Source: a virus (lineage: Duplodnaviria; Caudoviricetes). From it: 64,000 nucleotides of DNA. The notes beneath the pieces are model-generated. The model was not told the DNA's origin. It saw only the letters and a program-made list of their open reading frames with translations, and ran no database searches. Shown here one piece after another: positions 19,686 to 58,155 of this stretch. The position numbers and the translations under genes are program-made. Position 1 is the first letter of the stretch; each line of letters starts with the position of its first letter. The DNA is taken from positions 1 to 64,000 of the IMG/VR virus record IMGVR_UViG_3300027969_004220; one strand, 5' to 3'.

Positions 19686-20090
19686 ATGAATTTAAAAGAA
19701 CAAATTAGCAAAGACTACATGACTGCTTTCAAAGAAAGAAATGTCGTAGCAAAGAACTTACTTTCTGTAGTGAAAGGAGAAATCCAAACTATTGAAAAAA
19801 ATACAGGAGTAGATTGTCTTTCTGATGCAGAGGTAATTAAAATTCTTAATAAAACTGCAAAATCTCTTAAAGAAGTTATCGCAACTTCTGGTGATGCTGA
19901 ATCTGTAACTCAATTAGAAATGGTTGAAGCTTTACTTCCAGCTGCTATGACAAGAGAAGATGTTGTTGTAAAAGTTAGTGCACTTGTTGCATCAGGTATT
20001 ACCAATGTTGGTGGAATTATGAAAGAGTTTGCTACTTTACAAGTAGATAGAAAAGTTGTATCAGAAGTTATTAAAGAAGTATTAGCATAA
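19686..20090 (+). CDS. GatB/YqeY domain protein
   Basis: MNLKEQISKDYMTAFK...LSDAEVIKIL...LP..MTREDV...GGIMK pattern. Confidence 0.8.
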   Translation: MNLKEQISKDYMTAFKERNVVAKNLLSVVKGEIQTIEKNTGVDCLSDAEVIKILNKTAKSLKEVIATSGDAESVTQLEMVEALLPAAMTREDVVVKVSALVASGITNVGGIMKEFATLQVDRKVVSEVIKEVLA

Positions 20091-21346
20091 TGAAAAATAT
20101 AGTAGAAGAATTAAAATGGCGTGGATTGGTACACGATATAATACCTGGAACGGAGGCTCAACTTTTAAAAGAAGCCACCACCTCTTATATTGGTTTTGAT
20201 CCAACGTCAGATTCTCTACATATCGGTAGTTTAGTTCCAATCATTCTTTTAAAACATATGAAGAACTTTGGTCACAATCCTATCGCACTTGTTGGTGGGG
20301 CCACTGGTATGATCGGTGACCCCTCTGGTAAGTCAAATGAGAGAAATCTGTTAGACGAAGAAACACTTAGTAAAAATGTTGAAGGTATTAAAAATACACT
20401 AACAAGATTTTTAGGTGACACTCCTGTAGTAAATAACTACGATTGGATGTCAAAGTTTAGTTTTATAGATTTTGTACGAGACATTGGTAAAAGAATTACT
20501 GTAAATTACATGTTATCTAAACAATCTGTAAAAAACCGTATTGAAGGTGAAGGAATGTCTTTCACCGAATTTACATACCAGTTGATTCAAGGATACGATT
20601 TCTACCATCTAAACAAAGAACATAACTGTTTATTACAAATGGGTGGTTCAGATCAATGGGGTAACATTACAACAGGAACTGAACTAATTCATAAAATGAA
20701 TCCTGGTAGGGAATCATTTGCAATGACATGTCCTTTACTAACTAAATCGGATGGTTCTAAGTTCGGAAAATCTGAAGGAGGTACAAATATATGGTTAGAT
20801 AAAGATAAGACCTCTGTGTACAAGTTTTACCAATTTTGGATAAATACTGATGATAATGATGCAGAGAAATACATTAAAATCTTTACATTTTTAGATAAAG
20901 AAACTATTGATAATTTAATAGAAGAACATAATAAATCAAAGAACTTATTTTTGTTACAAAAAAAATTAGCAAGAGAAATAACTATTATGGTTCACGGTCA
21001 GCAAGAGTTTGAAAAAGCAATAGAAGCTTCTAACATTTTATTTAATGGTGGAGATTTAAACTTACTTGATGAAGAATTATTTCTAGATATATTTGGTGGA
21101 ATACCACAAGCGAAAGTTCCTATGGAAGATATTCTTGCTGGTATTACAATGACAGACATTCTATTTAAAACAGGTTTCTTAAAATCAAATAATGAAGCTA
21201 GGAGAGCTTTAAAAGAAAACTCTGTTGCAGTAAATAAAATAAAGAGAGAGGAAGACTACATAGTAACAGATGTTGATTTGATAAATGATAAGTTTATCAT
21301 ACTACAAAGAGGCAAGAAAAGTTACTTCTTAGTTGAAGCATCATAG
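20090..21346 (+). CDS. tyrS: Tyrosyl-tRNA synthetase
   Basis: YIGFDPT, HIGS, GGSDQWGNI and KFGKS motifs; C-terminal S4-like domain. Confidence 0.97.
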   Translation: MKNIVEELKWRGLVHDIIPGTEAQLLKEATTSYIGFDPTSDSLHIGSLVPIILLKHMKNFGHNPIALVGGATGMIGDPSGKSNERNLLDEETLSKNVEGIKNTLTRFLGDTPVVNNYDWMSKFSFIDFVRDIGKRITVNYMLSKQSVKNRIEGEGMSFTEFTYQLIQGYDFYHLNKEHNCLLQMGGSDQWGNITTGTELIHKMNPGRESFAMTCPLLTKSDGSKFGKSEGGTNIWLDKDKTSVYKFYQFWINTDDNDAEKYIKIFTFLDKETIDNLIEEHNKSKNLFLLQKKLAREITIMVHGQQEFEKAIEASNILFNGGDLNLLDEELFLDIFGGIPQAKVPMEDILAGITMTDILFKTGFLKSNNEARRALKENSVAVNKIKREEDYIVTDVDLINDKFIILQRGKKSYFLVEAS

Positions 21347-22563: not shown

Positions 22564-22649
22564 TCCCTCTTAGCTCAGTTGGTTTGCATTATGCTTAGAG
22601 CAATCGTCTTTTAAACGATGGGTCACAGGTTCGAATCCTGTAGGGGGAA
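22564..22649 (+). tRNA. trnK: tRNA-Lys(UUU) with enlarged D-loop
   Basis: Anticodon arm ATCGT-CTTTTAA-ACGAT; T-loop TTCGAAT; GCA-TTA-TGC insertion in the D-loop. Confidence 0.85.
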
Positions 22650-23100: not shown

Positions 23101-23949
23101 ATGGGTTCAAATAACTGGTCGAGAAATGAGGAAGAATTATTAAAGGAAAATTATGGAAAATTAGGTGCAGAAAAGTGTAGTATTTTATTAGGTAGAACTA
23201 AAAGAGCATGTCAGATACGTGCAAAAAAATTGTTACTAAAATATGTAGATGATAGATATAATAAAATCAATTTATTAGAAATTGTAAAAGATTCTAAAAC
23301 AAAATCTGAATGTTTACGTAGATTAAATTTATCAACCAATGCAGGAAATTTTGATACACTTAACAGATATATTAAAAAATATGAAATAGATATATCACAT
23401 TTTGAATGTGTCACAGATGGATTAAAAATTTATGTTTCGAGTATAACAATCCCAATAAAAGATATATTGATAGAAAACTCTACATATAGTAGTACAAATC
23501 ATTTAAAAAAAAGATTATATAAAGAAGATTTAAAACAAAGAAGATGTGAATTATGTAACCAGGGAGAAGATTGGATGGGTAAAAAAATGAGTCTAATTTT
23601 AGATCATATAAATGGAGTAAATAATGATAATAGATTAGAAAATTTAAGAATTGTTTGTCCTAATTGTAATGCAACATTAGATACACATTGTAGAGGAACT
23701 AGAATAACAAAAGAAATAGAGAATAAAGATCATTGTAAATGTGGTGGTAGTAAATGGAAAACAAGTAAATCTTGTGTAGATTGTAGTAAAAAATTACAAA
23801 GAAAAGTTGAAAGACCTTCATTAGAACAAATTTTAGAAGATATAAAAGAAACAAACTATGTCTTAACCGGTAAAAAATATGGTGTTAGTGATAACACTAT
23901 AAGAAAGTGGATAAGACAATATAATGCGGATTTAGCTGAGACGGTTTAG
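23101..23949 (+). CDS. HNH homing endonuclease inside tRNA operon 1
   Basis: CELC...LDHINGVNNDNRLENLRIVCPNCN; its 3' end overlaps tRNA-Phe. Confidence 0.85.
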   Translation: MGSNNWSRNEEELLKENYGKLGAEKCSILLGRTKRACQIRAKKLLLKYVDDRYNKINLLEIVKDSKTKSECLRRLNLSTNAGNFDTLNRYIKKYEIDISHFECVTDGLKIYVSSITIPIKDILIENSTYSSTNHLKKRLYKEDLKQRRCELCNQGEDWMGKKMSLILDHINGVNNDNRLENLRIVCPNCNATLDTHCRGTRITKEIENKDHCKCGGSKWKTSKSCVDCSKKLQRKVERPSLEQILEDIKETNYVLTGKKYGVSDNTIRKWIRQYNADLAETV

Positions 23950-23997
23950 CGTATGGTTGAAAGCCATAAGAGGTCGATTCGATTTCGACAATCCGCA
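23926..23997 (+). tRNA. trnF: tRNA-Phe(GAA)
   Basis: TATGG-TTGAAAG-CCATA; acceptor GCGGATT/AATCCGC. Confidence 0.85.
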
Positions 23998-24001
23998 CAA
24001 A

Positions 24002-24132
24002 TAGAAAGTAGCTCAATTGGTAGAGCACGTAATCATACTTAGTCAGTCTTTCTCTAAGAAATTAGTAGCAATGAAATAAGTTACTTCGCTCTGTTAAAGC
24101 CGTGGTTGTGGGTTCGAGTCCCACCTTTCTAT
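24002..24132 (+). tRNA. tRNA-Asn(GUU)-like gene interrupted by a 58-nt structured insert (24030-24087)
   Basis: Removing the insert restores CGGCT-CTGTTAA-AGCCG; D and T arms canonical. Confidence 0.7.
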
Positions 24133-24176
24133 CAAATAAATAAAAACAAAGAATAAAATTTTAATATATAAATAAT

Positions 24177-24254
24177 ATGAAAACAATTATCACAACATCG
24201 TCAAGTTCGTCTAGTCGCTCAAGTAATTTGAGGGAGGTTCTGTTGTGCTCATAA
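24177..24254 (+). CDS. Attenuator leader peptide 2 (Ser-run plus Arg CGC)
   Basis: MKTIITTSSSSSSRSSNLREVLLCS; precedes a terminator, Arg(ACG) and four Ser tRNAs. Confidence 0.85.
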   Translation: MKTIITTSSSSSSRSSNLREVLLCS

Positions 24255-24275
24255 TTGATATAAAAAATTAGTATG

Positions 24276-24308
24276 AAACCCACAGACTTCAAAGTTTGTG
24301 GGTTTTTT
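24276..24308 (+). terminator. Attenuator terminator 2
   Basis: AAACCCACAGACT-tcaa-AGTTTGTGGGTTT plus T-run. Confidence 0.9.
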
Positions 24309-24318
24309 GTTTTTAATT

Positions 24319-24390
24319 GGTTCCATCGTTTAACGGATAGGATAGGTCGCTACGAACGATCAGGTGGGGGTTCGATTCCCTCTGGAATCA
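24319..24390 (+). tRNA. trnR: tRNA-Arg(ACG)
   Basis: GGTCG-CTACGAA-CGATC. Confidence 0.85.
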
Positions 24391-24399
24391 CAAATATAT

Positions 24400-24482
24400 G
24401 GAGGGTACCGCTAAGGTGGCAAACTGGATTTGAACTCCAGGGGTACGGGCAACTGTACGGGTTTCGATTACTCTATCCTCCT
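24400..24482 (+). tRNA. trnS: tRNA-Ser(UGA)
   Basis: CTGGA-TTTGAAC-TCCAG; long variable arm. Confidence 0.75.
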
Positions 24483-24488
24483 CAAAAT

Positions 24489-24572
24489 AGAGAAGATCTG
24501 GCTGGATGAAGGGCAAATCTTGAAAATTTGTAAAGGGTTACACCTTTGTGGGTTCGAGTCCCACCTTCTCTA
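24489..24572 (+). tRNA. trnS: tRNA-Ser(UGA)
   Basis: CAAAT-CTTGAAA-ATTTG; long variable arm AAAGG/CCTTT. Confidence 0.8.
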
Positions 24573-24578
24573 CAATAT

Positions 24579-24664
24579 AGTGAGTAAGCCTTGATGGTGA
24601 TAGGGTCTGCCTGGAAAGCAGTACGTACGTTTAGATGTATAGGGTTCGATTCCCTTGCTCACTA
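24579..24664 (+). tRNA. trnS: tRNA-Ser(GGA)
   Basis: CTGC-CTGGAAA-GCAG; long variable arm. Confidence 0.8.
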
Positions 24665-24673
24665 CAAAAATAT

Positions 24674-24759
24674 GGAGGATGAATTCACTGGGTAGTGGAC
24701 GCAGTTTGCTAAACTGTTGGTGCGTTAAATCGCATTGGGATCGAGACCTACTTCCTCCG
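24674..24759 (+). tRNA. trnS: tRNA-Ser(GCU)
   Basis: GCAGT-TTGCTAA-ACTGT; long variable arm; G73. Confidence 0.8.
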
Positions 24760-40253: not shown

Positions 40254-40880
40254 ATGTCAAAAAATAAAATAAAGTATCACTTTTTGTATAAAACTACAAA
40301 TTTGATAAATAGTAAGTATTATTATGGAATGCATAGTACCTATAAACTAGATGATGGTTATTTAGGATCTGGTAAAATGTTAAGATACTCAATACGTAAA
40401 TATGGTAAAGAAAATTTTAACATCGAAATTATAGAATTTTTTCCTTCAAGAGAAGATTTAGTAAACGCTGAAATGAATTTGATTACAGAAGAAATGGTAG
40501 TTGATAACAAACTATGTATGAACCTTAAAAAAGGTGGTTTAGGTGGATTTACAAAAGAACAATCTCATAAAGGTGCATTAAGGATGTTAGATATAATATG
40601 GAGTGATAGTGATTTTATAACAAGACACAACGAAAGAAAAAGTAAGCTAATCAAAGAACTATATCTAAGTGGTAAAATAAAAAGATGTGACTGGACTGGT
40701 AGAAAACATAGTAAAGATACTATAGAGAAAATGACTTTATCTAAAAAAGGACAAGGATTAGGAGAATCTAATTCACAATTCGGAACTTGCTGGATAACAA
40801 AAGATGGAGAGAATAAAAAAATAACAAAAGAAAAATTAGAAGACTATTTGATGGATGGTTGGATAAATGGAAGAAAATAA
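40254..40880 (+). CDS. GIY-YIG/NUMOD3 homing endonuclease inside tRNA operon 3
   Basis: FLYKTTNLINSKYYYGMH...YLGSG; GRKHSKDTIEKM NUMOD3-like segment. Confidence 0.8.
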   Translation: MSKNKIKYHFLYKTTNLINSKYYYGMHSTYKLDDGYLGSGKMLRYSIRKYGKENFNIEIIEFFPSREDLVNAEMNLITEEMVVDNKLCMNLKKGGLGGFTKEQSHKGALRMLDIIWSDSDFITRHNERKSKLIKELYLSGKIKRCDWTGRKHSKDTIEKMTLSKKGQGLGESNSQFGTCWITKDGENKKITKEKLEDYLMDGWINGRK

Positions 40881-40953: not shown

Positions 40954-41033
40954 CAGTATAAGTGGTTTAAGTTATAGAAATCTCTATATCTAAGACGTTA
41001 GATGAAAAATTTTTATACACCACTTTAATTATA

Positions 41034-41177
41034 AAGATAGTAGTAATATAAAGCGTTACTTCGTATTCAAACGACTATTATAGGTTCGAATCCTATTGTC
41101 TGCTCAAATAATTAAAAATGCAGATATAGTGTAATGGTAACACAGTAAAAACACGTTTAATAAACTTTCTCTATCTT
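41034..41177 (+). tRNA. Circularly permuted tRNA-like gene flanked by the split halves of the insert seen in tRNA-Asn
   Basis: 3' half (anticodon-like arm, ATAGG-TTCGAAT-CCTAT, TGTCTGC-T; 41062-41104) precedes 5' half (GCAGATA-TA-GTGT-AATGGTA-ACAC; 41120-41146). Confidence 0.65.
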
Positions 41178-41182
41178 ACTTT

Positions 41183-41254
41183 GGGGCTATCGTATAATGG
41201 CTATTACACAGGATTTGCAATTCTGATATGAGATTTCGACTATCTCTAGCTCCA
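41183..41254 (+). tRNA. trnA: tRNA-Ala(UGC)
   Basis: CAGGA-TTTGCAA-TTCTG; G3:U70 pair. Confidence 0.9.
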
Positions 41255-57900: not shown

Positions 57901-57970
57901 GTCGGGGTGGTGGAATGGTAGACACGCAGCACTTAAAATGCTGTGCTCCAGAAGAGTCCCTTTCCCGATA
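57901..57970 (+). pseudogene. tRNA-Leu(UAA) lacking the T-arm
   Basis: CAGCA-CTTAAAA-TGCTG intact; after the variable arm the sequence runs GAGT-CCCTT with no GGTTCG. Confidence 0.65.
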
Positions 57971-58074: not shown

Positions 58075-58155
58075 GCCTCAGTAGTCCCAGTTGTCTTCTA
58101 AACAACTACGGGTAATTGGAAACTGAAAATGTAGGTTCGAATCCTATCTGGGGTA
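58075..58155 (+). tRNA. Non-canonical tRNA-Arg(UCU)-like RNA (anticodon arm precedes a D-like arm)
   Basis: GCCTCAG/CTGGGGT acceptor; AGTTGT-CTTCTAA-ACAACT directly after it; then GGT-AATTGGAA-ACT, GAAAAT and a canonical T-arm. Confidence 0.6.

Follow-up and report, generated by a model that had tools for sequence, protein, structure and literature searches.

At positions 24002 to 24132 of the window, i.e., the whole 64,000-nt stretch of viral DNA under analysis, lies a tRNA-Asn gene, the anticodon stem of which is interrupted by an insert of 58 nucleotides. The window corresponds to the first 64 kb of a 105,621-bp viral contig of IMG/VR, judged 38% complete; its nearest public relatives, at 635-642 kb, belong to uncultured huge phages. 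Parts of this stretch also occur in DNA runs, labelled as freshwater, lake, riverine, and aquatic metagenomes, from 17 studies. As found with ARAGORN and Rfam, the window harbours more than 30 tRNA genes organised in four arrays. An ordinary tRNA-Asn(GTT) gene is also present at 58971-59042 (ARAGORN, Rfam), and the interrupted gene is therefore dispensable for decoding.

An Interrupted tRNA-Asn Gene

The full Rfam tRNA model (RF00005, positions 1-71) matches 24002-24132 with 44.8 bits, against a gathering score of 29, and a block of 71 nt sits unaligned in the anticodon arm of this match. With ARAGORN run on a construct lacking the insert, it gives a cloverleaf with the conserved D and T loop nucleotides of a tRNA. 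In silico removal of 24030-24087 (script and ARAGORN) leaves a tRNA-Asn(GTT) of 74 nt whose 5-bp anticodon stem is perfect and whose loop reads CTGTTAA, so that the initial annotation, which had proposed that this very deletion restores a canonical tRNA-Asn, was correct in this respect. Without introns allowed, ARAGORN does not call the intact locus. With introns allowed, it returns a tRNA-Met(CAT) with a 51-nt intron at 36/37, a candidate rejected because its stem is mismatched, its variable region being odd as well.

All the elements first described for the insert are present, namely the helix ACTTA/TAAGT (24037-41 / 24077-81), the hairpin CTAA-GAAA-TTAG (24054-65), the loop strands between them, and the end GTTACTTC. 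The features of the locus are the following, where P1 and P2 designate the two helices of the inserted module, G001 and G003 related huge phages, and the closed and open forms two arrangements of the module described further below:

24002-24029, + strand: tRNA-Asn-like body, 5' part, i.e., acceptor 5' strand, D arm, A26, C27, and G28 (Rfam tRNA alignment, ARAGORN on the deletion construct); kept in G001 and G003 with compensatory acceptor changes
24030-24036, + strand: module 5' tail TAATCAT, single-stranded linker; TATTCAT in the G003 homologue
24037-24041, + strand: P1 5' strand ACTTA, pairing with 24077-24081; covariation with TCTCT/AGAGA in G003 and in alignment A3
24042-24053, + strand: junction strand ending in the conserved TTTCT (24049-24053); TTCTC is invariant in 8/8 closed forms and recurs in the trailers of open units
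24054-24065, + strand: P2 hairpin CTAA-GAAA-TTAG, the closed cap; P2 covaries among closed forms (CTC/GAG, CCG/CGG, CTG/CAG, CAT/ATG), often with GNRA loops
24066-24076, + strand: junction strand with the conserved TAGCAAT (24066-24072), at the site of the YrlA GNCGAA motif; GTAG and AT are invariant in 8/8 closed forms, and the Rfam YrlA alignment places it in the 5' internal loop of the model
24077-24081, + strand: P1 3' strand TAAGT, with the same covariation as the P1 5' strand
24082-24087, + strand: 3' tail TACTTC, invariant in closed forms; together with T24081 it gives TTAC, fitting the YUAY motif of YrlA as given by Chen et al. (2014; PMC4201824)
24088-24132, + strand: tRNA-Asn-like body, 3' part, i.e., G29-T31, loop CTGTTAA, anticodon 3' strand, variable loop, T arm, acceptor 3' strand, and discriminator T (Rfam, ARAGORN); in G003, the anticodon, T, and acceptor stems bear compensatory substitutions

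Single-sequence folding energy is no better than that of shuffles, with z = -0.30 for the insert and z = -0.87 for the whole RNA; the structure is taken as real because its helices covary across homologues and not on account of folding energy. Across 23700-24700, four RNA-library runs gave just a 151-nt contig at 24220-24370 and, from a foreign contig, an 18-nt match to the D arm, with 24030-24087 uncovered.

Conservation in Related Huge Phages

The homologue of 24002-24132 is 96% identical in G001, and 74% identical and 140 nt long in G003. Compensatory changes among these homologues affect the acceptor stem (two pairs), the anticodon stem, the T stem, and P1 (closing A-T changed to T-A), in addition to a lengthened P2, which is 5 nt longer in G001 and reaches 8 bp in G003. 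The module tails differ at 1/7 positions on the 5' side and 0/6 on the 3' side. A model of the closed module (R1) finds exactly one strong match each in G000, G001, G003, and G004. The discriminator base of the interrupted tRNA-Asn is T in the window and C in G003, that of the ordinary tRNA-Asn gene being G; for asparaginyl-tRNA synthetase (AsnRS), G73 matters.

It is barely credible that the locus represents a dead tRNA gene having received a chance or mobile insertion. Such a pseudogene would be in keeping with the missing ARAGORN call, a folding energy not beyond that of shuffles, and a discriminator that varies between T and C among homologues where the ordinary tRNA-Asn has G, but at 74% identity compensatory changes are found in every tRNA stem as well as in P1 and P2, one strong closed-module match is present per genome in four genomes, and the module sequence is common to dozens of unrelated contigs. 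Homologues with covariation, the absence of which, together with that of a spliced or stable RNA, had been named at the outset as what would dismiss the initial proposal, do exist, since P1 and P2 covary in eight closed forms and both the tRNA stems and the module compensate in G003. As judged from these substitutions, the 24002-24132 locus is under selection, for the tRNA fold and for the module alike.

A Phage RNA Module in Open and Closed Forms

Units of the same kind were gathered by two pattern scans of IMG/VR, which yielded many chance matches along with dozens of true units. In the first scan, 119 stretches matched, many being single matches without tRNA context; chance matches in the second included coding-like families (L127/L129/L136 and L125/L130), and in one further homologue search the true homologues amounted to 2 of 12 hits. 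True units often stand in tandem within phage tRNA arrays. Each is composed of an A-rich 5' tail, of 6-13 nt in units other than the tRNA-Asn insert, P1 with a 5' strand starting with AC, a short junction ending in TTTCT, P2, T-AGYAAT, the P1 3' strand ending in GT, and a tail TAC-TTC followed nearly always by G. The internal loop is asymmetric, with TTTCT on one strand and TAGYAAT on the other. When the module is closed, P2 carries a cap, often a GNRA loop, and the whole lies inside a tRNA-like RNA, while in the open form the two ends of the unit make P2 and a payload, either tRNA-like or tiny, is held between the tail and the A-run.

The pairing of P2 was assessed on 61 distinct units chosen solely on P1 and the TTYTY motif, of which 32 have at least six contiguous P2 pairs, compared with a mean of 5.2 and a maximum of 11 over 200 repeats with swapped partners. 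Across these 32 units, three to five pair types occur at P2 positions 2-6 and two to four at P1 positions 3-5. This independent test supersedes an earlier one of P1 partners (6-mers, G-U pairs), in which 58 units had their own partner versus 21-35 when swapped, and which was replaced because it was too permissive. In the eight closed forms of alignment A3, from which L171 was left out because its P1 is unplaceable, 88.7% of cells are paired versus 70.8% in shuffles, 0/500 of which reach the former value; 13 double-change cells are counted versus 3.6 expected from shuffles, and slid controls are 22-54% paired. Looked for among the module units, GTN anticodon loops are not enriched.

Some closed modules, at L073:2183-2297, L175:6895-6963(-), and in their flanks, are found inside mini tRNA-like RNAs, which possess an acceptor stem with encoded CCA, an anticodon-like hairpin with a GTA loop, and a small GNRA-type hairpin replacing the T arm.

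A Second Locus with the Open Form

As the initial annotation had pointed out, the same motifs recur at 41034-41177, and this locus and 24002-24132 hold the only copies in the 105,621-bp contig. Here, the module is split around its payload:

41034-41062, + strand: leader half of the open module, i.e., P2 3' strand (41034-41040), T, AGTAAT, P1 3' strand AAGCGT (41051-41056), and tail TACTTC; read from the sequence and from G002 and G003 homologues with compensatory P1 changes (ACACTC/GAGTGT)
41063-41146, + strand: payload, a circularly permuted tRNA-like domain read from the sequence, with an anticodon-like hairpin, variable loop, T arm, acceptor 3' strand, 15-nt loop, acceptor 5' strand, D arm, A, and GT
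41147-41177, + strand: trailer half of the open module, i.e., AAAAAC, P1 5' strand ACGTTT (41153-41158), junction with TTTCT (41166-41170), and P2 5' strand CTATCTT (41171-41177); read from the sequence and homologues

Like the tRNA-Asn insert, the leader ends in GTTACTTC, and the break in the tRNA is at the same place, namely 28/29. In the payload, the Rfam tRNA model sees the T-arm part only, at 14.6 bits. G002 and G003 retain this locus, with P1, the T stem, and the acceptor-like stem all showing compensatory substitutions. Its anticodon-like loop (41065-41070) has 6 nt in the window versus the canonical 7 nt in G002 and G003.

Relation to YrlA and Phage Y RNAs

Phage Ro60 and Y-RNA-like genes are already on record (PMC4201824; PMC12135203). 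YrlA is defined by a 5' GNCGAAN0-1G motif, a YUAY opening the tRNA-like domain, and a position at most 4 kb from a same-strand Ro60/TROVE gene (PMC4201824); the tRNA-like domain comprises a T arm, an acceptor-like hairpin, and a D arm (Chen et al., 2014; PMC4201824), and the CGAA motif is thought to contact Ro60 (PMC4201824; PMC12135203). The Thermus phage phiLo, as described there, carries phiRo60 with two Y-RNA-like genes, Yrl1 and Yrl2, just upstream (PMC12135203).

Three open units, namely L145:5633-5759, L145:3609-3735, and L175:4591-4718, match the Rfam YrlA model (RF02553) over its full length (1-114) with sub-threshold scores of 36.9-39 bits (E = 3.5e-5 to 1.4e-4), and its gathering score of 69 bits is reached neither by the window loci nor by their relatives, the maximum being 39 bits. 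In the alignment of L145:5633-5759, P2 corresponds to the outer stem of the model, P1 to the inner stem, TAGYAAT to the 5' internal loop, and TTAC to CUA, after which follow the T arm, the closed acceptor-like hairpin, and the D arm. The model gives no Rfam match at 24002-24132 or 41034-41177, and none even at E <= 10 for 40990-41200. A YUAY is found in both window loci as TTAC (24081-24084 and 41056-41059), and a tetranucleotide of this type is present in the eight closed forms, as ATAC in G003 and TTAC in the other seven. GNCGAAN0-1G, with its CGAA, is not found, the conserved strand being TAGYAAT. RNA ends located in the stem, together with a tRNA-like domain made of T arm, closed acceptor-like hairpin, and D arm, are found at 41034-41177 and not at 24002-24132, the latter having a closed stem and free acceptor ends.

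As such, the open units, including 41034-41177, share with YrlA a stem whose internal loop, close to the 5' end, is conserved, then YUAY, then a tRNA-like domain made of a V or anticodon-like hairpin, a T arm, a closed acceptor-like hairpin, and a D arm. The module family likewise stands beside Ro60/TROVE genes on the same strand, and YrlA has been described in both phages and bacteria. The open units differ from YrlA by TAGYAAT in place of the GNCGAAN0-1G loop and by Rfam scores that are below threshold or absent. The 24002-24132 locus is further apart, being circularly permuted relative to YrlA, with free tRNA ends, a Y stem capped by a tetraloop, and a complete tRNA-Asn including the anticodon arm, and whereas YrlA adjoins TROVE, this copy resides in a tRNA array. 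Compared with phiLo, the huge phage G003 also has two units upstream of its TROVE ORF, but Yrl1 and Yrl2 are defined by the CGAA motif and a 5'-3' stem, and an embedded full tRNA is absent from the accessible part of their description (PMC12135203).

The 41034-41177 locus is an open, YrlA-like RNA. The insert at 24030-24087 represents a single copy of an RNA module widespread among phages. Its nearest known kind is the YrlA-type Y RNA, so that the new class suggested by the initial annotation goes too far. In the literature on phage Y RNAs, Ro60/TROVE, and permuted phage tRNAs, including the accessible parts of a jumbo-phage survey (PMC7824862) and a Listeria phage study (PMC12282133), no report was found of a TAGYAAT-type motif, of its numerous permuted arrangements with tRNA bodies, or of a tRNA in normal order bearing a capped Y stem; the phage YrlA genes listed in the supplementary tables of Chen et al. 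(2014) lie outside this search and may bear on novelty.

Association with Ro60/TROVE Genes

ORFs flanking the arrays at L145 and L041 encode TROVE proteins (E = 2e-8 and 2.5e-14, respectively), with a Ro60-type vWA domain in addition in the former. By tblastn, TROVE is rare in phages, i.e., 88 of 50,697 records. Close relatives of these TROVE proteins were not found in cultured phages, the best match, at 33.7% identity, being to an uncultured record. Over 77 phage TROVE loci totalling 644 kb, the leader motif occurs on the TROVE strand in 57 and on the opposite strand in 2; with a strict leader pattern, the corresponding numbers are 28 and 2. For all six TROVE genes inspected, a same-strand unit is present within about 1 kb, and the module family as a whole lies within the distance of about 4 kb, on the same strand, that characterises YrlA. 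The units are located on the TROVE strand about 430 nt upstream of the gene in huge phages and, in a 172-kb phage, just downstream as a group of five.

Conversely, among five motif-bearing records, TROVE is present in four, namely three near-complete huge-phage relatives (385, 476, and 635 kb) and the complete 172-kb phage, the exception being a 43%-complete fragment. It is also present in 16 of 27 further motif-bearing records, including all four that are at least 90% complete, the 11 others being at most 15% complete. In total, TROVE accompanies the module in 7/7 near-complete (at least 90%) genomes. The gene was not found in the 105,621-bp, 38%-complete contig of the window. In the near-complete G003, the tRNA-Asn homologue maps to about 220.3 kb, TROVE to about 97 kb; with some 122 kb between them, the 24002-24132 copy consequently falls outside the adjacency of YrlA.

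One may ask whether the module is instead a processing or stability signal of tRNA-array transcripts, e.g., a stem for a host or phage RNase or chaperone, the link to Ro60 being indirect. Units do occur within tRNA arrays and flank tRNA-like payloads, most huge-phage copies are far from the TROVE gene, and the loop motif is unlike CGAA; still, a TROVE adjacency that is strand-specific (57 versus 2 of 77 loci), the presence of TROVE in every one of the seven near-complete module-bearing genomes, and an architecture matching YrlA make this explanation unlikely.

Upstream of the G003 TROVE ORF, which spans L199:919-2370, two units were observed at L199:469-545 and about 556-700, one with a tiny payload and the other with a larger, non-tRNA payload. 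A 13-base stretch in the P2 region of the former is identical to part of P2 in the G003 tRNA-Asn chimera.

Intron or Permanent Domain

In bacterial and phage tRNA genes, group I introns exceed 200 nt and are located in the anticodon loop. The present locus resembles them as an interrupted bacterial or phage tRNA gene and differs in size, in site, and in the lack of any Rfam intron match. At E <= 1, Rfam 15 gives only tRNA matches in 23990-24145, in agreement with the initial view that no group I or II intron is involved, and no ribozyme or intron family appears at gathering level in the whole window, where tRNA is the only family matched. Introns at non-canonical positions of archaeal and eukaryal tRNAs need a bulge-helix-bulge (BHB), a splicing endonuclease, and a ligase, and in the permuted tRNA genes of Cyanidioschyzon merolae the 3' half precedes the 5' half. 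The likeness to these systems resides in the interruption of the anticodon stem and in the order of the halves, the difference in that no BHB and no endonuclease or RtcB gene was found here. The BHB, of which no clear instance had been seen initially, was sought at the two junctions, where no 4-bp helix stands in BHB register. In the contig and four relatives, the tRNA-splicing endonuclease (tRNA_int_endo, PF01974) and RtcB were each detected in 0/5 records. Genes of the ATP-dependent RNA-ligase family (PF09414) are present in four of five related records.

A true intron, self-splicing or cut by an enzyme and then ligated, with the open form as a natural permuted intron-exon gene circularising permuted tRNAs that RNase P would open, appears very unlikely. 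The deletion of 24030-24087 does give a perfect tRNA-Asn with a canonical 5-bp anticodon stem, also in G003, the 28/29 junction is common to both window loci, G002, and G003, the G at +1 after the tail is nearly invariant, and the RNA-ligase-family genes noted above are present (4/5 records). Units with payloads of 10-14 nt beside TROVE would, however, result in absurd circles, and the 5' side shows no conserved cut site, with a tail length of 6-13 nt. In some units, moreover, the tail TTC(G/T) forms the 5' side of the acceptor-like helix in a tRNA-like body that is not permuted and that precedes a small GNRA hairpin; elsewhere, the tail supplies the 5' strand to an anticodon-like hairpin. The implied 3' junction is also one base apart between the two window loci, and neither a BHB, an endonuclease or RtcB gene, nor an Rfam ribozyme match was found.

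For the open units, a permuted intron-exon splicing model had been considered; it was dropped because its junction rule was inconsistent between loci and because YrlA matches and TROVE ORFs appeared. It is equally improbable, or slightly more so, that the module is a removable RNA of about 50 nt, excised from tRNA-Asn possibly with the assistance of Ro60, with the open form circularising permuted tRNAs; a splicing system unlike any known in bacteria or phages would then be at work.

Of the two readings put forward by the initial annotation, the intron or ribozyme loses ground for want of a family match and of splicing genes and with the same module encompassing payloads of 10-14 nt, whereas the permanent extra domain gains from the Y-RNA stem layout and the TROVE association.

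A Probable tRNA-Asn/Y-RNA Chimera

The 58-nt insert is probably a Y-RNA-type stem module, composed of P1, an asymmetric internal loop, and P2, that remains a permanent part of the RNA and is not an intron, which would make 24002-24132 a tRNA-Asn/Y-RNA chimera with a putative Ro60-binding domain. This reading fits because the layout is that of a Y-RNA stem and because the association with phage Ro60/TROVE genes is tight. In the usual, open form, small phage RNAs whose genes adjoin the Ro60 (Rsr/TROVE) gene would begin and end with the two strands of the module and, like bacterial YrlA and YrlB, bear a tRNA-like domain or a tiny loop at the opposite end. The 24002-24132 RNA would be a circular permutation thereof, in which P2 is capped by a GAAA loop, the tRNA-Asn keeps free 5' and 3' ends, and the module is predicted to project from the anticodon stem between pairs 28:42 and 29:41.

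Such an RNA may be released from the tRNA array in the manner of a tRNA, i.e., by RNase P and 3' trimming, and stay at about 131 nt. Its module could dock the ring of the phage Ro60, by which the tRNA-Asn-like body may be presented to, or withheld from, tRNA-binding factors, such as exonucleases, modification or repair enzymes, and anticodon nucleases. The chimera would then act as an adaptor, a gate, or a decoy, with no decoding on the ribosome; a function as shield or decoy, as first proposed, is possible.

If this is correct, a portable Y-RNA stem serves large aquatic phages as a handle, grafted on tRNA bodies at varied positions and in varied permutations, and the RNAs bearing this handle include a fully tRNA-shaped Asn species with free acceptor ends. 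The repertoire of Y RNAs would be wider than what the Rfam YrlA model detects, and the chimera would represent a plausible intermediate in the origin of YrlA-type tRNA mimics from tRNAs, by insertion of the stem and then permutation. Phage Ro60 and the module would also offer a defined RNA-protein pair for probing Ro60 in infection, with tRNA surveillance, tRNA repair, and anticodon-nuclease decoying as candidate roles. For annotators, a word of caution is that a tRNA gene found interrupted or permuted within a phage tRNA array does not necessarily contain an intron.

Other Features of the tRNA Arrays

Upstream of the first tRNA array of the window, a YqeY-like ORF is directly followed by a tyrosyl-tRNA synthetase (19686-21343; tRNA-synt_1b, E = 3.4e-79). 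Two ORFs between tRNA genes, one with HNH plus HTH (23101-23946) and the other a weak GIY-YIG, SegE-like one (40254-40877), resemble genes of the homing-endonuclease type. tRNA matches at 24580-24663, 58075-58155, 57901-57970, and 22583-22642 score above the Rfam gathering score and are uncalled by ARAGORN; they may be aberrant or tRNA-like genes.

The tRNAs for Asn, Ile, Val, Cys, Thr, and Lys normally exhibit short variable loops. In the window, Asn, Ile, Val, Cys, and Thr tRNAs of 82-94 nt with long, class-II-like variable arms are present at 59048-59136, 59133-59226, 59899-59982, 60152-60240, and 60555-60636, and the related huge phage LR745206 (L001:1993-2258) has three tRNA-Lys genes of 84-87 nt. 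In the tRNA arrays of related phages, the tRNA-Sec model (RF01852) matches at gathering score, with 47-48 bits, at L001:2731-2815, L002:2012-2098, and L145:9942-10024. Finally, in the tRNA/Y-RNA array of the complete 172-kb phage, L073:7793-7975 gives a weak full-model match (35.6 bits, E = 1e-6) to archaeal RNase P RNA, the gathering score of which is 84.
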